Assembly (NCBI RefSeq): GCF_035594765.1
Contig: NC_085841.1
Coordinates: 258,064,689-258,128,688 of the forward strand
Source of the DNA: Anolis carolinensis
Taxonomy: Eukaryota
Length of the DNA stretch: 64,000 nucleotides
Reading direction: 5' to 3'
Part shown: positions 26,201 through 43,817 of the stretch, piece after piece
Numbering within the stretch: position 1 is the stretch's first letter
Layout: every line of letters begins with the position of its first letter
The notes under the pieces: model-generated
Database searches by the model: none
What the model was told of the DNA's origin: nothing
What the model saw: only the letters and a program-made list of their open reading frames with translations
Made by a program: the position numbers and the translations under genes

Positions 26201-29200
26201 CTGCCACTTTTAAGCCAGCCTGTTGCTCACAGGTAGTGGTGGAGGATGAGCTGCCACTGAAGTCAGACTTAGCTGCAAGTCAGCTGTAGGTGAGATGGGA
26301 TACCACCTTGACCTTCACCTTGGGCAATAAAATGGCTTCTGCAAAACCTACAAAGCAACACTCTGCCTGAGAGTAGTCAAACATATACTGGAAAAAGGTG
26401 GCAAGAGCTCTTACTAGCATTCAGGAGCAATGGGTATCTTGCGTCCTTCTATATACCAATTTCATTCTTGCTATATTCGTCTTTCATTTGTGCCCCCATC
26501 ATTCTATATTAAAAATTACATTCAATATAGGTGCATTTTCTTTCTCAGACTGGATTTAGGTCCCTTTCCCCCAGTGTAATGCTCTAGACTTCAGCTCCTC
26601 ATTGATCCCAATCAGCATGGCCAATGTTAAAAAATACTGGAGCTTGTATTCAAAATAAGCCATTTCCGTTGACAAACAGCTTTTATCATCAGGTTGTTCC
26701 CAATGTTAAATGGAATCATCTTTCTTGTAATTTGAATATACCAATTTGGGTCTTCTTTGGAGAAATAGAAAAAAAAGGTTGCTCAGTCTTCTGGATGATT
26801 AACCTATTAGATAATTAAAGAAGCCTGTCATATTAGATTTCAGTCTTCTCCAAGCTAAATATACCTATCTCCCTCAATTATTCCTTACAGTGCTTGGTTT
26901 CAGTGCCAGGTTAGCATCCTGTTTAGTGGCCTCTGTCAGTGTAACCCTGGTGTTTCCCTTTGTTGTTGCAGAGTAGAGATTCTCAAACATTTTCAAGTTG
27001 CAACCCCATTTTATACAGGCAATGTGACCCACAATCCCGATACATTAAAATAGGTGAGCCACGTCCCCAATACATTAAAAGTTAGAGCTGTTGGTGCTGC
27101 TACAGTGACAACTATGGTGTCTGGTCCTTACAGCACTGCTCAGCTTGTGGTTAATTTTTAGCTGGCTGCTTGGCTGGCTAAAGAAAGGAAATAACATGAT
27201 GTGCTGGGTGTCAAATTTCTGGAAGCATGATCATTTGATTCATTTCGACAGGATTTAGGCTTGTGCATGGATTTAAATTGGTTAGTTCTCTTTGGCCAAT
27301 TCAGCTTGTTCGCCTTGGTTAGCTGGCCGTTGTGGTAAGGGCTTAGCCACCATGGTTTTTTTGCCTGAAACATCCCATGTGGCTGCCAGGCATGGCTTCT
27401 TCCCTTCTATTTGGGAGTATGCTGCACGTGGTTCCTCAATCCAGTTCCTCAAACCCAGACTCCCTGGCAAGGAAGAAAGGAAAGGGTTCCGGGAGGGGTG
27501 TTTTCTTAACCTCGTTGCTCAAACTTGGGCTCCCTTGAAAGGGAGAAAGGATCCCAAGAATGGAAAGGGGAGCCTCCTAAGTCCCCCATTCCTGCCAATG
27601 GGCCGGATCTTCCCAGATCTTTTGGCTGCTTAGCTAAAAACAGTTTTCTCCATTAGCTGATTTTTGGGAGGCTGCTGAAAACGGATCTGGGTAACCAACG
27701 AAATTCAGATACCAAAAACAGATTGCCCTCCAGCAAAATTGCACAAGCCTAATAGGATTTATTGTATTGTGCAGAATTCTCCAGTATTGAAGAAAAAATG
27801 TTGCCACTTTCAAGAAACAAAACTAGGCACTCAGCACACATGGATCACTAAGAATTGAACAAGCACAAGCCGAGCAGAGCCTGCATTCCATAGAGCCAAT
27901 CACTGAACTTCGCATGAACCTGAACCTCATAACAAGCTAACCCACTGAACAAACGATTGTTACATGTTTACGCAAACAAATCTCTGTGTACGACACAATG
28001 AGATGATTTTTTGTTTTCCCTTTTTAACATTTTCATAGCTCACCACTGCCCGGTGACCCCACAAAAAACCTTTCACGACCCTATGGTTTGGAAACCACTG
28101 TTGTAGAGGAAGCAGTTCAATTCATACAGTGATACCCATTTCCCTCAAAATCATCTGTCCCCTGCTGCTCCCCTTCAGGACATGACACTGTGGTGACTAG
28201 TGGCAGACAAGAAGCATTTGGCTGTGTCACTATAGCAGGATGTGTGACGTTGAAGGAATTCTTTGGGATCTCATAGGACTTAAGGTGTCAACAGCAGCTC
28301 CTGGAGGATGATGTTATTGTTATGCACCTGGCACTAGGGATATGAACAGCTGCTTCTCATTTCCCCCCACTCTCCACTACATAGCCATATGGGTAGGCCA
28401 GCAAGAAACCAGCTTGAAGGAAGAAGAATGAGGGAGATGGATGTAGTTCAACTTTCAGGCATTTTCTCCTGACACAGGTGGTTTTGGTCCCAGACTCACC
28501 AAGGACATGTATGTGCCACAGTAGCCACGGAAGCAGATTTTCTTTGTGGCATCATCGAATAGCAGCTGGAAGATCTCTGTGTTGCCAACAGCCATAGCAT
28601 TGGCATAGAGGTCAGCTCCTGTCGGAACATAGAAGCAGAGAGCCCAGTGACTACACCTTATAATGTAAAGCACACTGATCTCACTCTGACATAAAACTAT
28701 TTCAAATACCATTGCTGGCTGAGGTGAGGCTTGAGTGCAATACAATGGAAAGTCTATAGTACTTGTATGTAAAACTGATATTTGTAAGAAGACCCCAATG
28801 ATATATGATATTCCCTTTAGAAACTTGATTAAGGGTGCACTTAGTATTAAGTGTATACCTGGATTCTCATCCCCATTTACATCTAGATTTCTTGAGTCCA
28901 ATGACAGATAGTTCTCCACATACAATGGTGTTACTATGGTGCTGCTCGGAGTATGCACTGCAAAGGATTTGCATGCAAGATACTGCCACATGCTTAAAGT
29001 AATCTATATTGAAGGCGGGAAGATCTTGGGAAAGGTAAAAGGTAAAGGTTTTCCCCTGACATTAAGTCTAGTCATGTCTGACTCTGGAGGTTGGTGCTCA
29101 TCTCCATTTCTAAGCTGAAGAGCCGGCATTGTCCATAGACACCTCCAAGGTCATGTGGCCGGCATGACTGCATGGAGAGCTGTTACCTTCCTGCCGGAGG

Positions 29201-32200
29201 CAGTATCTATTGACATACTCACCTTTGCATGTTTTCAAACTGTTAGGTTAGCAGAAGCTGGTGCTAATAGTGGGAGCTCACCCTGCTTCCTGGATTCAAA
29301 CCACTGACCTTTTGGTCAGCAAGTTCAGCAGCTCAGCGATTTAACCCAAAGTGCCACCGGGGGCCCTAATCTTGAGAAATGTCTCATATTTTCTACAACT
29401 TACACTATTCAACACTTCAAGTTCTTGCTTTTCAGCTTAATTTGTCCCACTTCTATTAGCCATCTTTTCTGACTCACTGGCACTTTTTTTGGCCATCTAC
29501 CCATCACAAATGCATCCACCCCTTATATGTTCATTTAATTTACCCCAATAACCACTTTCCCCTCAAAACGTCTCCAGATCAGCTTCCATGGAGTTCTTCC
29601 TTCTCAGTCTACAACTTATTCTGCACTGTTCTTCAACTTTCTTGCCTTTGAGATTCTTGAACCATTCATAGAATCACGGAGTTGGAAGAGATCCCAAAGG
29701 CCATCCAGCCCACCCACCCACCCGCCATGCAAGAACACAAAATCAAAGCACCTTCGAAAGATGCCCATCCAGCCTCTTCTTAAAACTCTCCAGGGAAGGA
29801 GACTCCACTACACTTCCAGACAGCATATTCCACTGCCAAATAGCTCTTAACCACTAGAAAGTTCTTTCTAATGTTTAGGTGGAATCTCTTTTCCTACCAT
29901 TGGAATCTATTGCTCCCTGTGTTCTAGTCTCCAGAGCAATAGAAAAAAGGTTTGCCCTCTCTTCAATGCGACATCCTTTCAAATATTTAATCATGGCTAT
30001 CCCATCTTCTGTATTTGCTACAATTTCCTTCCATTCTTTCTTTGGCCTCACAAGTGAGCCTCCTTTCTAGATTTCAGCCAAACAAATCATTTCTCCAGGA
30101 ACAGAACTACAAACATTCCTTTCCTCTTGAGCAGGAGAAATGTTTATGGAATGTCCCTGGTCATCAGACCAGATCGGTAAAATCAGTGCCAGGGAAGTTT
30201 TACCCCCCATGAGTGGCATCCTATATTGATAATGCTGCCTGCCCTCAACCTACCTGGTCTGCAGCAGATGAACTTGTTAGTAGAAAAGGAACGCAGCGAA
30301 ACCTGGGCAGGGCTGGATTCCATACTGAAGAGCTCATCTCGTCCAGGTTTGTCCATCTTTACAGTTTTTATGCCACCTTCTCGCGCGCTCAAGTACTTCC
30401 CTTCATCATCCCGCAGGGCAACCAAGCCACCATTCACTTCCAGGGAGTACAAGGTTTCAGGGCCGATATCTGATACCAGTGAGCCATTGGCCGCCAACAT
30501 TTTGCCAGTCCCATTCCTTAAGCCATACTTTTTCACTGAAGAGCAGAAGGAAAAAAGAGGAGAAGTTATTAGGGACTTATGTTTTACTCACCAAAAACAG
30601 CCTCCACCTGAAATAATGTCTGCAGAGCAGTATCACAATCGGTGCTTTTCTCTCTTTGCAGAATTGCTGAAGGAACAGATCCTGCAGCATCAAGTAATTT
30701 CCAACACACTTGCCCTCCTCACTCTTGATCTTTCCCATGGTATTTCCCACCCCAGTCCAACGGGTTTTCTTTCTACATCAATGCTGCAGATCCTTGTCAC
30801 TTCTTTAATATATTGTTTGAGGTTAATTGTCTCTTACTTTTATATTTATTTGGTGCTACCATTACACCTGCTTTTCTTATATTTATTTCATTGCTATATT
30901 GGGGAGAATTTATGTATGTTCCTCCTTGAAATAGCTAGGCAACATGCCCTCGCATCCAGTTAAAATGCATCAATGTACACACAAAGATCTTAACCGGGTC
31001 TGATCTCAACACTTTGCTATAATTAGGAGGAGTTGTCACAGTTACCCAAGCCAGTGGCCATGCTGGCTGGGGGATTCTGGGAGTCCAAAAAAGTAACTTT
31101 CCCATGCTATGCCCCAGTTAATGAATGCTGTTAAAGAAATCAAGATTTCTGCCATCCATAGTGACTTGCTGGGTAAACAGAATTTGAATTCACCTGGTGC
31201 ATATGGGGACAATTGCCTTCTGTCAGCATTGTGTGCCACGGACTCCCGACCTATTGAGGAGATGCAAATGACTCAGGCTTAACTTCTTCACACATTAAAA
31301 GAAACGCAGAGAACTAATTTAGAAGTTGCTTGGGGCAGCTAACTGCACTTAATGTGGGTTTGGGATTTTAGCAGACACCTGGTTTATAAGCCCCACTCAA
31401 TAAATTACCAAGTTGCATGTTATCACAGAAAAGCAAGCTACACCACCATATACTTCCAAGACAGAGAATCTACAAAAGAAAGACATGGGCATTCCCATGG
31501 ATAGTTTACACAACAAAGTGGAGTGAGGAAGCTGCTTCGGGAAGCAGATGCTAGGGGAAGGCAGCAGTAACAACCCTACATGTTTTCTTCTTGAGTGTTT
31601 TTGGATATTTCCTTATGTTAGAGGACAAGAGTTGTGTTTGCCTTGTGATCAGATTTTTATCTTTTAAACCAGTGGTTCTCAGCCTGTGGATCCCCAGTGT
31701 TTTGACCTTCAACTCCTAGAAATCCTAATACGTAGCTGGTAAACTGACTGGGATTTCTGGGAGTTGTAGGCCAAAACACCTGGGGACCCACAAGTTGAGA
31801 ACCACTGCTTTAAACTACCCACTCTGCTTTACAGTGATGGAAGATTTTGTTTCATTCCAACTCTTGGAGTAAGATTAAATTGCTAGTCCAGTTAATTCTG
31901 TACTTATTCCACAGACAAGAGGGAAAGGGGGGGGGGGGCGGGCGGCAGAGGAAAGCAGGAAATGCATCCTACCCCAGCAAGATCCGTCTTCAGGGATGGA
32001 CAGCCACCCCATGACATTTCCCCGCTTTCCTCCGCTTCTGTGTGCTATCTTCTATTGGACTCCAGACGGACTCCAAAGACTGTCTTCACAGGCTGGGGAG
32101 ATGGATTTCAATGCACAGCTGTGCGTCATGGGAAGAACTCTGAGGGACTCCGTTACATCAGCATGACAAGATGGTCAGAAAATTGGGAAAATTTAGTGTG

Positions 32201-35200
32201 GGATAAGGTCCCTAGAAGAGGGAACACCATTCTGTCATTTGCCTCAAGGAGCAAAGTATCTTGGGCTTGCTTTGATTTCTCTGATTTTTTTTAATGTATG
32301 TAGGTGCTAAGTGTTGTGTCATTCCTCCACTTGGATTGTCACCAATAACTGTTGTTTTTTGCACATGTAAAAACATGCCTACTTATTTGAGCAGCACTGA
32401 TTTATTCCAATGGCTATTTACAGGATTTCTAAACAATTTTAACCATTTAAACCTGTTTTAGCTTGATGATATGTATAATTTGTATTTAGTCTATTTAAAA
32501 TAATCTTATTGTTTGGTATTATTTTCACCTGTCAGTATTGATTTTACCTGTGTGCCACCTTGAGATCATTTGATGTTGGGGAGAACAGATATATATTTAA
32601 AAGACTAAATAAGAGGATTTTCTGCAATACACATTCAAACATACTTCAACTGCATATTTCATATTTCTATGGGATGCTTTTCAACAATAATTTAATAGAC
32701 TGTTTGTAAGAAATTTGTAGCCAGACTATCCAGGACAGGGCAGGAGAGGAAAAAATACCTCCCACCATAAGACCGTAATTCAATTGAAGAATAACAAAAT
32801 CATGAATCATTTTTGCAAAGGAGGGTGTGGTAGAGAGTCTTGTTCTTTTCACAAGCCTTGCTCAATAAAAAAGTCATTCTAAATGAGCACTCCTATACCA
32901 CAAAAATGCTATCTTTATGGTTCACATAATTATATAGCCAAGTTGCAGGTATGCATGGCAGGGGATATATTACTTTGAGCGGCTCATGCAATGAGGACAG
33001 GTATGTGTGTACCTCACCCCAGCGTCTTCGGGTCAAATACCATGCAGCTGGACCCACAAATAGACATTAGACCCTGCAAAGCACACTAATTATACCATAA
33101 ATAATATTCAGTCATGTTCTGCATATACTGTAGTGCCTGGTAGATTGAACAGAACTGTTGTATGCAGCAATAGGGGATTAGAATTATTGCATTTTCTCCA
33201 GGTACAAAAATTGTGTGTATGTGTGGAGGTGAGATACTCCTCTTCCACAACAGAAATGAGGGGCACAAGGGAGACTTTGCAAAATAATACATAGAGTGAA
33301 CAAAGTGTATCTAAGGTACAATTAACTGCACAGAAGAAATCGACTCTACACCCATTCCTTTCCACCAGATCAGAGATAGTTGAGAGTACTAAGCAATGAC
33401 CCTGATCTAGCTCAAGTTCGTCACAATTAATGCAAGCCTAGTGCTTTCAATTGTACTTACAGTGCTTTCCTATGTCAAGAAAGCAAATATTTCAGAAGTG
33501 AACATTGCCATATTTAATGGAGTTTCCTTTACACTTAGGATCAAAGGGTGCAGCTACATTGTAAAAGTTTGACACCACTTTAACTCCCAAACAGAATGGG
33601 ATTTGTGGCTTGGTGAGACACTCTTTGGCAGACTTGTAAAATTACAACTTCCATGATTCCGTAGCATTCAGCCATTCAAGTTCAAGTGATGTCAAACTGA
33701 AATAATTCTATAGTGCAGATGCACCCACAGTCTAAATCATGATTAGCTTATAACCGAATTGGAAGCTTTATTGTTTAATGTTGTGGGCTTTGCTCATTCT
33801 AAACAGTAGGTAAAGGTTCTCCCCTGACATTAAGTCTAGTCGTATCCGACTCTGCGGGTTGGTGCTCATCTCCATTTCTAAGTTGGAGAGCTGGCATTGT
33901 GCATAGACACCTCCAAGGTTATGTGGTTGGCATGACTGCATGGAGCACTGTTACTTTCCCACCAGAGAGGTACCTATTGATCAACTCACATTTGCATGTT
34001 TTTGAACTGCTAGGTTGGCAGAAGCTGGGGCTAACAGTGAGAACTCACCCCACTCCCTGGATTTGATCAACCGACCTTTTGGTCGCAAGTTCAGCAGCTC
34101 AGCGGTTTAATCCATTGTGCCACCTGGGGCAAAATATCTTTCTTAAATGTAATTTGTTGCCAAGGGATTAAAGGGTATACCTCACTTCTTGACTGTCTAG
34201 CTTTTATGATTTCAAGCTCAAATTTTGGGGGACAATTTAAAGCCAAGAATTTTACATTGGAAAAACTGTTTTCTTATCCTCTTAACATTTCACAGATGAA
34301 AACTTCTATCATATGTGGTCAAGATGGCAAATGTTATTAATTAGGAACAACAGGAAAACTATAAGAGGCTGGAGACGTTTGTCATAGCCTGACAAATCCT
34401 GAGTTAACTGAGTGTAAATTATATTGAGGTTTGAACTCAATTTGCAGCAACTGAAGTATGCTGAGGACAAAGAGGAAAAATCACAAGGGGAGACATTTTA
34501 AAAGCAGTGGGATAACAGAGGATTAAGCAGGACCATCCCTACCAAATCAAGAGTGGGAGAGTGTGAGTTTCTGTCTGTAACTTCATTCTACCTAGCTACT
34601 GCATAATTCCTCATTTTTCATCACCCAGGTTTTCTGTGTGATAGATTGCCGTCTTTAAGTTCATAATTAATTAAGACCTTAGACAGAAAACATTTTTCGA
34701 CCACAAACCCCATAACTGGTCTGTTTGATTCTGTGAGCTGTAATCCAAAAAGGTCCAAGCTTTTGTTTACATGATATCAGAATGGACTTTAACCTCAAGG
34801 CTGAAACCTTATGAAAGGGAAGACAATTCATTTGAGAACATGTTTCTACCCACTTCTGAAATCATAGTAGACTGTGATGACGGATTCCGCTCCCCAAGGC
34901 ATGTCGCGATCACAGCGCAGCACCCCAGCTTTCTCATCACAGCGCACGTAACGCTTTTTGTTGGGGTTGAACATTGCAACATTGGGGTGCACTGCCAGGT
35001 GTAAGGTCCATTTTTCAGTTTCGGTGGCAACCTGGGCGAAGCAAGTGACATTCTCCTCTGCGCCACCCAGGTAGCGCTTGGACTGTTCATTCTGGAAAGA
35101 GACCTGTCATGAAGGAGGGAGAAATGGGAACTTCATCACCTGAGATAGGAAGAAGAGGAATATTCCCATTGACATTGAAGGTGGTATCAGAACAGAACAG

Positions 35201-37016
35201 CTAAGGCCATGTGATCGTGCAGAATTTTGAATTTTTTTTTCTGGGACTACATTGGGAGATTCTGAGAACTGTAGTCAAAAAAGATTTTTTTTAAGCTGTG
35301 TTGCTGCAATTATGATGTCTTGTGATCATGTTGTGGTCAAGTTGTCCTACTTGCTCAGTTATTTCTAGGCCTCCTGAAAGAGGTTAAATACTTTTGGTTC
35401 TCAATTTTTGGCCTCCCAAATGCTTTTGGATATTACCGTAGTCCCCATAATCCTTCAGTGCTGGCTATGCCAGATAAGGCTTCTCTGGGAGATCAAGTCC
35501 AAAGGCTGTGAAAGTAGGGCATTATTTTAAGGTACCCTTGACTGAAGCAGTTCTGCCATGGGTTTTTTTTTTATAAAGTATTCTAATGCATCTTTCCCTC
35601 TCAACCTCCAGACTCACTATCACTCTTGTGACCAACAGTGACAAGCATTGATTGGTTTTGGTCCACATGGCTGATTTCACAGGAAAAAAATCAGAATGTC
35701 CGGAGAGGAAAATATCTTCGACCAATTCCAGGACACATGGCATTCTCAGTTTTCAGACCCACCCTGAGATATTTCATTGTCTGAAGATGGAACAATCAGA
35801 TGGTGTCCCTTTTCTAGTCTAAATGAAGATGTGCCATACCCAAAGTTGGAAAAGCTATTGTGACACCCAGGACAGAAATTCTCACTAGTTCCTCTTCCTG
35901 ACACTAAAACACATTAATAATCATGCAAATAATAAACACTTTGCTTTTCTTTGCCTAATAGGAGTGCTGGCCCCAACAAGTAGATATACATGTTAGTATT
36001 ACACTGGCAGTGCAGGGAACAGCCATCTATCTATTTGCCCTTGAAATACAGATGCCAGCATGATGAGAAAAGCACATTCCCCATCACCAGCAACTGGTGT
36101 TTTCCCTCCTGCATTTGCTTCTTCTGCCTTTTATAGGGAAAATAACATCAATAGATTCACTTGCTGCCATAAAGAGAGAGCCCTGTTGCTGAAGACTGAG
36201 CAAAAATACTTTAAATAAAATATAACAAAATATTAAATAAATAACACTATGTAACAAAATTTGGAAAAAAATTCTGTTCCTGTTTTAAAAGTGTTATTTT
36301 CTGTATAATTGTTCAGCATTTACTTTCGAAGTAGTTCTTATACTCCAGAAACTTCTTTTTTGTGGCTGCCACAAAATATGTTGAATTGGTCGAGACTATC
36401 AGATATTCATTGAAATCCATAGCAAAATGTGTTGCAAGATGTCCTGCACAAAGTTTTCACAGTTTAATAAACTTTTCCATGTTTTTATGATAGAATTAGG
36501 AAATGACATTTATAACCCAGGAACAAAAAACGTGCTACATAGGGTAACAGATATTAAATACCCACACTTTGGGACAGCATGGAATAACTTGGGAGAGCTT
36601 ATTAATATAGCTTATTGTTCTAATATCCTCCCTAACCCCACTCCTTCTAAGCAGAATCCCAGTTTGAGAATGGAGATTAACAGTTTATGAATGTGTCTGC
36701 ACAATGTCACCTTGCCATCTGGATACTGATGGAGCAGAAAGAAGGTCTGTGGTCCTGGCTTATCCTGGTCACAGGTGATTTTGCCATTTGCGTCAGCTGC
36801 CAAGTAACGTTTCAGGGCACTGACCAGGTGAAGCTTCTGGCCAGCCCCTTCTCCAGGGCCGGCTGCCCCAGCGCCATGAGGGCTCACGAACTTAAGCACC
36901 CAGACCTGGCGAGGCTTCAGCTGCTTGCCAGTGGCCGACACCTGGAAGCGGAAGGGCTCAGCAGTCAGGTATCGGTTGGCTGCATTAACCAGGCCAAATT
37001 CTAGGGAGACAGTCAT
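23028..37016 (-). CDS. Fascin-family actin-bundling protein (four beta-trefoils), 494 aa, 7 coding exons; divergent paralogue not assignable to FSCN1/2/3
   Basis: Exons 37016-36711, 35103-34854, 30535-30254, 28618-28500, 25954-25801, 25449-25276 and 23227-23028 sum to 1485 nt with no internal stop. Start context is CCACCATG. Fascin motifs: FGLVNAANRYLTAE, RYLAAD, RYLGG..CFAQ..EKWTLHLAVHP, DRDMPWG, VALRDDEGKYL, GRDELF, VNRPLLVL. AATAAA on the - strand at 23002-22997. Confidence 0.93.
23593..23724. other. Assembly gap (N run) in fascin-like intron 6
   Basis: Run of N. Exons 6 and 7 join in frame without it, so no coding exon needs to lie in the gap. Confidence 0.99.
24000..24480 (-). mobile_element. 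L2-clade LINE 3' fragment
   Basis: Degenerate ORF2 peptides IVHALVTSRLDYCNSL, KLQLVQ..A.RLLTG and RAFSVV.P.LWN.LP. Confidence 0.75.
25276..25449 (-). CDS. Fascin-like exon 6 (GKIEDFLLVLVNRPLLVLHSDAGYVG...GYYNFQI)
   Basis: TTCCAG acceptor, G|GTATGT donor; contains the fascin NRP motif. Confidence 0.9.
25801..25954 (-). CDS. Fascin-like exon 5 (GPNDCIISSSKQDKNVWFDLHYQDQKVMLRIGDKYVSMRPNGQLLAIPKAA)
   Basis: TCACAG acceptor, G|GTACAC donor; phases fit the neighbouring exons. Confidence 0.88.
28500..28618 (-). CDS. Fascin-like exon 4 (GADLYANAMAVGNTEIFQLLFDDATKKICFRGYCGTYMSL)
   Basis: ACAG acceptor, GTGAGT donor; homologous to the fascin segment GMDLSAN...FQLE..TKKCAFR. Confidence 0.9.
29031..29366 (-). 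mobile_element. Sauria SINE
   Basis: Reverse complement of the 11787-12115 copy, with an (AAAGGT)n tail. Confidence 0.88.
29665..30000 (-). mobile_element. CR1 LINE 3' fragment (relatives at about 3380-3590, 24560-24760, 55790-56220)
   Basis: FKYLKGC-type coding remnant and a TTCTATGA-type 3' tail on the - strand. Confidence 0.7.
30254..30535 (-). CDS. Fascin-like exon 3 (MKKYGLRNGTGK...KFICCRP)
   Basis: TTCAG acceptor, G|GTAGGT donor; matches ORF 30183..30536. Confidence 0.9.
33808..34130 (-). mobile_element. Sauria SINE
   Basis: Same family as the other Sauria copies, on the - strand. Confidence 0.85.
34854..35103 (-). CDS. Fascin-like exon 2 (VSFQNEQSKRYLGGAEENVTCFAQ...DRDMPWGAESVITVYYDFR)
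   Basis: Polypyrimidine tract plus ACAG acceptor, donor A|GTGGGT, phase 1. The ORF track does not show this frame. Confidence 0.9.
36711..37016 (-). CDS. Fascin-like exon 1 (MTVSLEFGLVNAANRYLTAEPFRFQ...HQYPDGK)
   Basis: ATG at 37016, donor AAG|GTGACA, phase 0; aligns to fascin beta-trefoil 1. Confidence 0.9.
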
Positions 37017-37095
37017 GGTGGGACTAACCAAGGCTGGAATGGCACCAGCTCTGCAGAGTAGCCAGCTGGGACTATTTGAGATTCCTCCTGGGCTA

Positions 37096-37121
37096 TGAGG
37101 TCACAATGGGTGCCTAGCAAC
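37096..37121 (-). promoter_or_regulatory. Candidate RFX X-box (GTTGCTAGGCACC on -, 37121-37109) and CRE/nuclear-receptor-like TGAGGTCA (37096-37103) upstream of the fascin-like ATG
   Basis: One mismatch to the 13-bp X-box form GTTGCTAGGCAAC; lies 80-105 bp upstream of the start codon. Confidence 0.5.
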
Positions 37122-41000: not shown

Positions 41001-42333
41001 GAATCTATTAGCAAATCATCTGTGGATAGTGAGTGGACCTGCATTAGCCAGAGTTCAATCTATCTCTTAAGGGAAACTCCACACTGTGAGCAGTTTGACT
41101 AACACAGGCCCCTCTACAGGCAGCTAGGTGCCTTGGTTCAGGGACTAAGTGGGGAAAGGAGGCAAGAGAGGTGACTAGAAGCAGCAACCAGCCCACCCTC
41201 CATCCCAGAAGAAAGAGAGGGAGGAAATACTATTGTGTCTAAGCTGTAGACAATGGTGCTAGGGGACAAGACTGAAAGCTGTTTTGGGAAAAAGTTGAGA
41301 CTTTAGGAGGACTGGATGCCTTGGTGCCTGAGAAGACAACACAGTGCGGACTGTGGACACAAGCCCCAGTGAGACAATGGGCATACATCTTGTGCTGTGC
41401 AGAAGCACCACATTCTTCCTATAGAAGATAAGCCGGATGGATTCCTCCTCAACTGCTCTGAGAGAAGATATGGTAAGGGAAGAGGCAGGAGACCTCTGTG
41501 GGAAGCACCATTCTTCTTAGGTCCAAGAATCCATGGACTGAAGTGGCCCCCTGGTCACAGTGGCTCAGGCAAACTCCCCTCTCAAAGTCCCAAGTCATTT
41601 GAGTTTCTCCATCAAGCAGCAGCACAGAGAGGGAGGGCTTGGTGCCACAAGATGGAGTTCTACAGGCGAAGTCACTTCCAAGGGGTCCAGAAAGAGCAGA
41701 GGGCAGTGGGGAGGAGTGGGTGGAGAAGCCGCCACCCTTTAAGTCTTGATTAAGGAGAGGAGATAACGAGTCCATAAAAACACCGAATGCTTCCGAAGCT
41801 CCTAAAAAGACAACACAAAGTAGGAAAAAAGAGTAACTTCTATTGCCCAGTTAAAGACCATTATTTAGAAAGGACAAAAGTCTTGGCTAAACCTCGGGAC
41901 GTCAGCTGATATTTCTAAAGGAAAGAAGAGGCATTCTTTTGTTCGTGGTTAGGGTTCAAATCCAGGCTCAATCATTCAAGCATACTAAATATTAAAATAT
42001 TGCTTTCCCTCAACTGAGCACTCGCCTTTAGCATATAGTGGGGGGGGGGAAGTATTTAGTCAGATACCACCACCATAATTTGCAAATAAATTCATGAAAA
42101 ATCAAACAATGTGATTTTCTGGATGTGTTTTCTCATGTTGTCTCTCATAGTTGAGGTCTACCTATGTTAATCACAGGCCTCTCTAATCTTGTTAAGTGGG
42201 AGAACTTGTACAATTGGTATCTGAATACTACCCCCCCCCCCCCCCCGCACTGTATATCACAACATCTGTTTCCAACCTACAGAATAAACCTATTTGTCAC
42301 AATAACAAAGGCGAACAAACAAATTATGGTGAA

Positions 42334-43475
42334 TGTTATGATTGAGCCTCATGGCTCTGTTACTGACAGACGTGGGCGTAAGACTCCTCGAGAGTCAGAT
42401 ACTCTCGAGGAGCGAGAAAGAAAAAGACTGCGAGACATTTTTGCAGCACCATCTGACGAAGAGTCTTTTGAGGGGTTTACGGAGAGAATGGAGGAGGGGC
42501 TGGTTAGCTCGGAGGAGGATGAGATGGATTGGACTCGGGTAAGGGAGGAATTGGGTGCCACTGGTCATGATGGGATAGAAGATGAATGGGGACCTTCAGG
42601 ATTAGACCCATGGCTTAGCTGGAGGGATGGGACGGGATCCACAGCTGGAGATGCTGTGGGGCGTAGTCAGAGGTGTTCCAGCTCTGATGAGGAAAGTGAT
42701 GAGGAAACGCCCGGGTTAAGGAGGACAGCTGACAGTGATGAGGATTTGTAACTGGCATAAAATGGGGCTTGGGAGCAATTGCAAATTGCGTTGGGCAAGG
42801 TAATCTGGACGAACGCTTGGGATCTGTGTGGGACGCTTTCCTGAAGACTGGTGTGTTTTCCTGTGCTGAGACGTAAGTTGTTTTGGAATTCAGGGTCAGA
42901 CGGCGGGAGGAATTGTGTGGGCATTTGTTTGTGCAAACCTGTGCTTACTCTTATTAGCTTGACCTTCCGTCGTCTTCTTGACGAACGCCATCTCCTGTTT
43001 TGAAAACTCGGACTGAACTGACCACGGCTTGTCTTCCCCCCTTCTTGGACTTGGAATCTACAAACGTCTGCTTCTGGCTTTGAACTACGGAAAGGAACTG
43101 GGTCTACTCTACTGCTACAATCCTTGGCTGATCTGTTCGTGTTGGAAATCCTGTCTGCTGTGTGTGTGGGAGCGACGCAAGTTACTCTAAGCACAGTGTT
43201 GGCAGCAGAGAGGAATCTGCTGCCAATTAGTTGCATTCTTTTGTATCTTTTGTTCCTCGGCTTTTGTTTTGTTTATCCCCAGGCTGAAGCAAGCAGTTTG
43301 TTTTTACCCGGATTAAACTCCGGTTTAATCCGGTTTATCTTTTGAACGTTTTTCCTTGCCCCTTTTTGCTCCTAAAGGCTAATACTGCCTGGCCCTTGTA
43401 TTTTACGGGCATTTTTGAGTTCTGTAATCCAATAAACTCTGTTATCTTGAACCTTGTGGCGTTCTGTCCTTGACA
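42334..43475 (+). mobile_element. Solo LTR (probably Gypsy-type) in the 3'UTR intron of CPSF7, antisense to the gene
   Basis: Termini TGTTA...TGACA; 5-bp TSD GTGAA (42329-42333 / 43476-43480); TATA-like CATAAAA near 42756; AATAAA at 43431-43436. Confidence 0.88.
42338..42751 (+). CDS. LTR U3-encoded acidic ORF (137 aa from ATG) with a JPO2-like FxGF motif; possibly the C-terminal tail of the parent element's pol/integrase
   Basis: The frame is open from the first LTR base and stops just before the TATA-like box. Contains RERKRLRDIFAAPSDEESFEGF and several S-D/E clusters. Confidence 0.5.
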   Translation: MIEPHGSVTDRRGRKTPRESDTLEERERKRLRDIFAAPSDEESFEGFTERMEEGLVSSEEDEMDWTRVREELGATGHDGIEDEWGPSGLDPWLSWRDGTGSTAGDAVGRSQRCSSSDEESDEETPGLRRTADSDEDL

Positions 43476-43817
43476 GTGAATGTGCACTGGATCAGTTAAT
43501 CTCAGCGGAACAACTATACAGATTGTAGGTAAATCGAAACAAAAAAAAATTATTTTATGGGGAGTAACATCCCCTCCACTTGAAATTTCTTAACTCTCAG
43601 AAAATTCTGCAAAGAGAACACAAGAATATATTATGTATTTGTTCATAGTAGATAAAGATGCATGAACTTTCTGCAATATAAAGTCTTGCAGAATATGGGG
43701 AAAACTGACCGTATCTAGTAAGAATATACACAATGTGGTGATACAGTGTGGGTTTGTTTGGAAAAGGTAAAAGTACTGGAGAGGAAGTAGCACCCTGGAA
43801 AGATCACCTCACTTCTC

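Follow-up and report, generated by a model that had tools for sequence, protein, structure and literature searches.

A JPO2-like LEDGF/HRP2-type motif at the LTR-encoded integrase C-terminus of a young Ty3/Gypsy family in Anolis carolinensis

Introduction

Lentiviruses bind LEDGF through folded domains of their integrase. Among the retroviral genera tested, the interaction with LEDGF was limited to Lentivirus (PMC1802576). Short integrase C-terminal tethers to host chromatin factors are also known, as for Ty1 TD1 with AC40, Ty5 TD with Sir4 and murine leukaemia virus (MLV) with BET; these have other partners, and in the accessible part of the source none is described as an FxGF-bearing TND-interacting motif (TIM; TND, TFIIS N-terminal domain) or as encoded in a long terminal repeat (LTR) (PMC7459421). 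In group A of the plant CRM elements, a CR motif replaces the chromodomain and is coded in the 3' LTR (PMC3059260). Here, a stretch of 64,000 nucleotides (nt) of Anolis carolinensis DNA was analysed (hereafter the window, in which all coordinates are positions). It holds a solo LTR of a very young Ty3/Gypsy retrotransposon family, and this LTR encodes an acidic peptide with a motif like the one by which the host protein JPO2 (CDCA7L) binds the integrase-binding domain (IBD) of LEDGF.

According to the published description, a TIM comprises a helix carrying F/V/L/I anchors and then an acidic, CK2-phosphorylated linker of 8-16 residues, with FxGF specific to the TNDs of LEDGF and HRP2 (PMC9987994), and the IBD-binding motif (IBM) has the consensus D/ExExFxGF (PMC8022399). 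PogZ, a domesticated transposase, binds LEDGF according to the title of a reference in the latter source. In the accessible part of the TND review, viral mimicry comprises lentiviral integrases only and 'transpos' is absent (PMC9987994).

The window motif shares with JPO2 M1 and other TIMs (MLL1, PogZ, IWS1) the helix anchor, the acidic S/T linker, FxGF and the occurrence of tandem units, but it sits on a retrotransposon integrase, is coded in an LTR and is a putative ligand. With the lentiviral integrase-LEDGF/p75 system it has in common the proposed host domain and the proposed outcome, insertion into transcribed genes, whereas its carrier is an env-less Ty3/Gypsy element with a host-type linear motif. 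The clade resembles CRM group A in having an LTR-coded motif in the chromodomain's place; CRM group A is found in plants and at centromeres, with no partner named in the accessible text of PMC3059260, while the window clade is vertebrate, has a named candidate partner and is predicted to favour euchromatin.

Results

An integrase tail encoded in the 3' LTR

Searched at the DNA level with the LTR, the genome yielded 1432 candidates, the best 40 of which were all 100% identical over 427 nt, and candidate pairs lay ~5.1-5.2 kb apart. In eight full-length copies of this family (family A), the paired LTRs were 99.7-100% identical. Target-site duplications (TSDs) of 5 bp flanked 10 of 10 family-A solo LTRs with the end found, as well as 22 of 23 solo LTRs of family B (~72-75% identical to A in the tail; at least 150 copies). 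Full-length copies encode Gag and then, in another frame, protease (PR), reverse transcriptase (RT), RNase H (RH), integrase (IN) and SH3_Tf2-1 (Pfam), and thus show the TG..CA LTRs, the TSD and the gag, PR-RT-RH-IN order of Ty3/Gypsy elements. The self-priming primer-binding site described for the Tf1/Sushi group (PMC6317226) was present as well, with an 11-nt complement in the LTR next to a transcription start that is presumed, not mapped. In an RT/IN tree built without a named reference element (Sushi-ichi, Amn), the family was nested in a clade supported at 100/99 whose other members bear a chromodomain. The parent family is a very young Ty3/Gypsy family of the Tf1/Sushi chromovirus lineage. 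An endogenous retrovirus was rejected as its origin, on the grounds of the Ty3-type domains and of no env-length frame between integrase and LTR.

Although the family belongs to the chromovirus lineage by descent, it has no chromodomain: no Pfam Chromo match was obtained in family-A pol at E ≤ 1, and close relatives (P0006-P0009) carry a chromodomain where the window family has its motif tail. Vertebrate Tf1/Sushi (V-clade) chromoviruses share with the window clade gag and pol, the PR-RT-RH-IN order, SH3_Tf2-1, the self-priming site and the 5-bp TSD, and differ in having a chromodomain where the clade has the motif-bearing tail. A chromodomain-bearing Gypsy element of this lizard was reportedly described in 2009.

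In seven of these eight family-A copies, a single frame leads from the integrase region across the polypurine tract into the 3' LTR, with the window peptide at its end; four of the eight have an unbroken pol of 1214 codons, and in one a frameshift follows the SH3 region. Read-through was also seen in six of six family-B copies, which had been chosen for long frames. Copies of older families were selected by the junction pattern only (polypurine tract plus LTR start; 13 matches versus 1 for the control, 6 of the 13 taken): four of these six were in frame across the junction and two were broken, the succession of SH3, short linker and LTR tail was clear in five, the sixth having lost most of pol, and none of the six gave a chromodomain match. 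As the pol frame continues unbroken into the 3' LTR, the peptide is the C-terminus of integrase. The preliminary description of this locus, made from the window's letters, had proposed such a continuation of pol, or alternatively an accessory protein encoded in U3. The first proposal is borne out; the second is unlikely and was rejected, the open reading frame (ORF) lying wholly upstream of the presumed transcription start.

Family-A LTRs occur in two lengths, ~1142 and ~1057 bp, distinguished by an 85-bp deletion downstream of the coding part (L031, L033, L034 and others). The genome also holds a young and abundant Gypsy family with a chromodomain (L083-L112, L119-L123), which likewise reads into its 3' LTR. 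At one older-family locus (L178, ~208-840, minus-strand reading), the 5' LTR frame enters sequence like the LTR frame of the chromodomain family, probably through a nested insertion that is in frame by chance. Several NCBI gene models (P0291-P0293, P0142), comprising an OGFRL1 isoform and uncharacterised loci, cluster with the element tail or contain it, a possible exonisation of the LTR frame or else annotation artefacts; P0142 is the one whose sequence was examined.

Selection and conservation of the tail

In family B, 147 of the best 150 copies (a biased sample) had no stop in the tail. The ratio of nonsynonymous to synonymous divergence (dN/dS) was computed between one A copy and six B copies, which are not independent and were chosen for long frames. 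It was 0.26-0.28 for the whole tail (Fisher p ~1e-7), 0.08-0.19 for helix and motif together, 0.26-0.30 for what follows the motif and 0.53-0.63 (not significant) for the first 22 codons, against 0.01-0.04 for RT, RNase H and the integrase core.

These values bear on the possibility that the ORF is a by-product, pol merely lacking a stop before the LTR and conservation arising from DNA-level constraints on the U3 enhancer or attachment site. Relatives without the motif (P0006, P0007 and the chromodomain family) do read into the LTR, and tail dS is below that of RT and IN, both as such a by-product would have it. The low dN relative to dS nevertheless largely refutes it; moreover, the same residues are encoded by different codons across families, duplications of the unit keep the frame, and in the four pairs aligning end to end, identity of the non-coding LTR is no more than ~68-70%, with numerous gaps. 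The by-product explanation is thus highly improbable, and the tail is almost certainly translated and under selection.

The motif was then followed into deeper relatives with a pattern of three acidic codons-x-F-x-G-F using Gly codons unused by the main A and B forms, which gave 817 genome matches (the first 100 listed) versus 34 for the reversed control. All 14 sampled matches, taken to cover the codon types, were homologous tails (33-52% identity) from several further families; the LTR-type start was shared by 13 of them, and a TSD was recognisable in 6. Several carried two motif units and one carried five. In five aligned relatives chosen without regard to the motif, the FxGF positions were identical to the window in 18 of 20 cases, compared with 37/70 for the helix, 17/40 for the linker, and 32/110 and 115/394 for the flanks before and after. 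Within the tail, conservation is highest in the helix-acidic-FxGF unit. FxGF is retained in 7 of 11 units that fall outside the selection pattern (background, 53 of 11,072 windows). The older families, 71-76% identical to A in RT, fell into one clade with A and B supported at 100/100 in both gene regions; the chromodomain-less families form a single clade.

LTRs in which a motif unit of ~150 bp is repeated in frame two to five times (L171, G000:C1:132552577-132555577; L167-L170, L173, L175) represent copy-number variation of a protein motif within an LTR. The Trp-rich block downstream of the motif (Table 1) shows about the same degree of conservation across families as the helix; in some families it is partly a degenerate further motif unit.

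Likeness to JPO2 and origin of the motif

The window peptide was searched against 177,635 PDB sequences, and its sole match at E ≤ 10 was 6EMO, a fusion of the LEDGF IBD with JPO2 M1, with 11 of 15 residues identical. The E-value was 1.6 with the whole peptide and 0.13 with a 36-residue piece, pentatricopeptide repeats then scoring higher, and this single-sequence match alone is not significant. With a profile of 16 element units, 6EMO ranked first at E = 0.0031, the next match being at 0.3, and other solved IBM peptides were not matched in PDB. The likeness to JPO2 of about 11/15 given in the preliminary description therefore stood, at significance only with the family profile; the additional downstream SSEE match that it had claimed did not, as the PDB construct ends before that point and the lizard CDCA7L has no SSEE there. 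Moreover, 11/15 is at the high end of the clade and overstates its likeness, because most older-family units have Leu at the helix anchor (Phe in A, B and two second units).

The motif agrees with the published TIM description, as had been suggested, and is most like JPO2 M1. A short helix with conserved anchors of the F/V/L/I type is present (helix pLDDT, the predicted local distance difference test score, ~70 in a poor model), and the acidic linker from the anchor to the first Phe is 8 residues long in 14 of 14 units. The window motif fits D/E-x-E-x-F-x-G-F, some families having D at the second acidic position. No Pfam family matched the tail, and ESM Atlas gave no usable match for it; the double-motif region of P0155 found only sub-0.9 clusters there, which were given no weight. 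In a single-sequence AlphaFold2 model of SH3 plus tail (mean pLDDT 43.5), the helix was the best segment, low values being uninformative on disorder here because the known SH3 fold failed in the same model.

The likeness could also be coincidental, the tail being a selected acidic module for nuclear import, as a CK2 substrate or for an unrelated host ligand. The E of 1.6 for the single-sequence match, the Leu anchor of most older-family units, the conservation of the second, Trp-rich block and the failure of the profile to match other solved IBM peptides are all compatible with this, and the Ty1 integrase offers a precedent of a CK2-phosphorylated tail whose sites had no effect on mobility (PMC9673352, accessible part). 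Set against these points, all three TIM elements occur at fixed spacing, Leu and Ile anchors are allowed in TIMs, the profile reaches E = 0.0031, FxGF is the most invariant element and a similar motif recurs in a second clade, which leaves coincidence distinctly improbable.

Compared with the lizard's own CDCA7L, the window motif is identical at 10 of 15 residues. At the DNA level, blastn gave no match of the motif to host CDCA7L; 32 of 66 nt agreed, 4 of 11 shared residues used the same codon, and the Ser codon block differed. A recent capture from CDCA7L was rejected, with neither DNA-level similarity nor homology beyond the motif; synonymous sites are near saturation even between subfamilies, which limits this test to recent events. 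Of the two origins put forward in the preliminary description, captured or convergent, the former left no signature from CDCA7L in the DNA: convergence is likely, an old capture doubtful. The host CDCA7L also has a second FxGF motif exon (L047:2215), and a CDCA7-like paralogue has one too (L051:8134).

A second motif-bearing clade

Among 170 proteins examined (20 from early searches plus the best 150 of 6763 matches), nine had a TIM-like motif: six belonged to the window family, and the other three (P0008, P0155, P0178) to a clade with a retained chromodomain. In the latter, the motif lies behind the chromodomain, twice in two of the proteins and once in P0178, and precedes the LTR junction. 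The Podarcis muralis members of this clade are P0008, P0308 and P0309, two of them added by a later search, and an uninterrupted stretch of eight residues in one P0309 motif is identical to the window motif.

In a careful RT-RH-IN tree of 13 rows, from which most of the 150 distant matches were left out, the window family grouped with a chromodomain-bearing, motif-less Podarcis element (87/92) and P0008 with the Anolis chromodomain family (86/84); neither grouping was starred, and P0008 is a longish branch. A single clade of all motif bearers was rejected (approximately unbiased test, p-AU 0.013), with P0008 as the only member of the second clade. Two origins of the motif are favoured by these sequence comparisons, loss or tail swapping by recombination being possible, and the second clade suggests that the motif was selected more than once at the integrase C-terminus.

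Candidate tethering to LEDGF/HRP2 and insertion sites

By analogy with JPO2, the unit would bind the TND/IBD of the H3K36me2/3 readers LEDGF (PSIP1) and/or HRP2, with CK2 phosphorylation raising the affinity and tandem units adding avidity, and the tail would tether the integration complex to the chromatin of transcribed genes, taking over the job of the lost chromodomain. From its sequence features, the tail probably binds a TND, most likely that of LEDGF/HRP2; whether such binding shapes insertion sites could go either way, and the tethering explanation as a whole is slightly favoured.

The host has PSIP1 with an intact IBD, and a second IBD gene is probably HDGFL2. An intronless PSIP1 retrocopy with an in-frame stop in its IBD was also found (L039; G000:C2:143716846-143720148). 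When the host IBD and the tail were predicted as a complex, the score was 0.40 versus 0.01 for the best control (at least 64% of contacts shared between runs; partner pLDDT at least 51), in a range (up to 0.60) that holds 5 of 78 solved complexes and all 4 passing mismatches for a method uncalibrated on peptides. This gives weak support, and for likeness only, since a like complex is solved.

Several observations weigh against tethering through the motif. The 15-codon core alone had dN < dS at p < 0.05 in only two of six comparisons, and selection extends beyond it, since the remainder of the tail shows constraint too (0.26-0.30). Synonymous divergence in the tail (dS 0.53-0.59) reaches at most about half the RT and IN values (1.0-1.8), so that the tail is additionally subject to DNA-level constraint or recombination. 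FxGF was lost in 4 of the 11 pattern-independent units, all decayed copies. Furthermore, the LTR tail of the chromodomain sister family is acidic and ends in GF but has no first Phe, which may make it a precursor of the motif or a decayed form; hence acidic LTR tails occur without the full motif.

A host Pfam exon was found within the 10-kb flank of 6 of 20 family-A sites, taken from ~31 young ones, versus 2 of 20 sites of the chromodomain family (two-sided p = 0.24, one-sided p = 0.12); the count considers the top 7 candidates per flank (280 in total), includes one A exon below the curated cut-off and relies on an exon finder of modest sensitivity, in whose ranking some true exons appeared for two of the three control stretches but none for the third. 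Exon score, GC, CpG, skew and repeat content showed no difference between the flanks of the two families (p 0.10-0.97). Only 12 of the best 150 family-B matches lay outside the six largest contigs, which leave a genome share of 15.3% (p = 0.012); the chromodomain family had 4 of 150 there in a tie-biased list, B being less depleted (p = 0.07). If the smaller contigs are gene-dense microchromosomes, as we take them to be, this is a depletion and not an HIV-like enrichment. Post-insertion selection could cause the depletion in family B, and the contig distribution lends no support to HIV-like targeting of gene-dense regions. Both the binding and the integration-site role of the tail are inferred from sequence likeness.

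A real TIM need not serve site selection. It might hold integrase on chromatin, stabilise it or, released by the protease, recruit or decoy TND factors (LEDGF, HRP2, IWS1, TFIIS, Elongin A, MED26, PNUTS), to the benefit of element transcription or escape from silencing. A conserved, JPO2-like motif with no detectable genic bias would be expected in that case, and the second clade, which keeps a chromodomain together with two motifs, indicates that the motif need not replace targeting. On the other hand, the motif is fused to integrase at the position of known targeting domains, its presence coincides with chromodomain loss, and the gene-proximity trend has the predicted direction. A TIM without a role in targeting is therefore rather unlikely.

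The solo LTR and its host gene

The features of the window copy are listed in Table 1.

Table 1. Features of the solo LTR and of its surroundings in the window.
Feature	Position	Strand	Basis or remark
Left target-site duplication GTGAA	42329..42333	+	flanking sequence
Solo LTR, 1142 bp, TG..CA, very young Ty3/Gypsy family	42334..43475	+	
Last 138 residues of Pol/integrase, coded in U3; passive copy here	42335..42751	+	
Basic RRGRK patch, partly kept across families	42368..42382	+	
Predicted amphipathic/basic helix up to hydrophobic anchor; first half of TIM-like motif	42404..42442	+	model and conservation
TIM/IBM-like motif: helix anchor, acidic CK2-type linker, FxGF	42434..42478	+	15 residues
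Second conserved tail block: DWT-x-V and Trp-rich stretch (W..L..W..WRD)	42527..42628	+	
TATA-like box CATAAAA	42756..42762	+	presumed function
11-nt self-priming site, complementary to the family's primer-binding site; presumed R start	42788..42798	+	
Polyadenylation signal AATAAA near the LTR 3' end	43431..43436	+	
Right target-site duplication GTGAA	43476..43480	+	flanking sequence
Predicted last (3' untranslated region) intron of CPSF7, holding the LTR antisense	41915..43812	-	splice consensus

The preliminary description of this copy was largely accurate: the TG..CA ends, GTGAA on both sides and the position of the motif are as it gave them, and its acidic peptide with CK2-type sites has 39 D/E among 138 residues (28% acidic) and 15 S/T-x-x-D/E sites. 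The frame said to be open from the first LTR base is indeed open until a stop just before the TATA-like box, for 138 codons, but starts at the second base. The ways in which it might have failed (an unconserved ORF or FxGF, neutral dN/dS, a JPO2 alignment that does not hold) did not materialise in the sequence data, with dN below dS and FxGF kept.

The self-priming complement begins 32 nt after the start of the TATA-like box, and the transcription start is placed from this layout; as both elements lie downstream of the ORF, the whole ORF would be in U3. The solo LTR is a recombination remnant from which probably no protein is made, the ORF being upstream of its promoter, and the tail would be translated only from the 3' LTR of a full-length RNA. 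The RRGRK patch is a possible nuclear localisation signal.

The minus-strand gene that hosts the LTR is CPSF7, whose RRM exon matches 3N9U (E = 3.7e-17). The LTR sits in antisense orientation between a donor predicted directly after the stop codon and a predicted acceptor, so that the gene intron in which this copy had been said to sit is that of CPSF7, as predicted by splice consensus only. Elsewhere in the window, exon-like frames at ~28458-37100 on the minus strand resemble a fascin-family gene.

Discussion

Taken together, the integrase tail is real, under selection and apparently undescribed. No report of a TIM or IBM in a retrotransposon integrase was found in titles and abstract starts of a mostly open literature, the families themselves perhaps being catalogued in Repbase or Dfam, and no link to the IBD was found in the accessible part of the Passer paper (PMC9976928). 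Short C-terminal tethers of integrase are already known; what looks new is a JPO2-like one in a retrotransposon, LEDGF-type by its sequence features. The full proposal can be advanced only tentatively, and we hold it somewhat short of probable: that squamate Ty3/Gypsy elements evolved or acquired a host-type LEDGF/HRP2 motif at the integrase C-terminus at least twice, and that one clade swapped its chromodomain for an LTR-borne, expandable motif, and with it a heterochromatin reader for a tether to H3K36me3 gene bodies.

The chromodomain-bearing Gypsy family provides a natural control for the motif clade, such that a single genome holds young families with the motif and no chromodomain and with a chromodomain and no full motif, in hundreds of copies each. 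This comparison makes the role of integrase tails in vertebrate site choice testable with annotation and chromatin immunoprecipitation (ChIP) data. The LTR of these elements doubles as a coding, repeat-expanding region for a selected protein module. If the proposal is true, they would make natural use of LEDGF for integration outside the lentiviruses, in a way mechanistically different from that of HIV, and the same host hub would have been exploited independently through motif mimicry and not through a folded surface.
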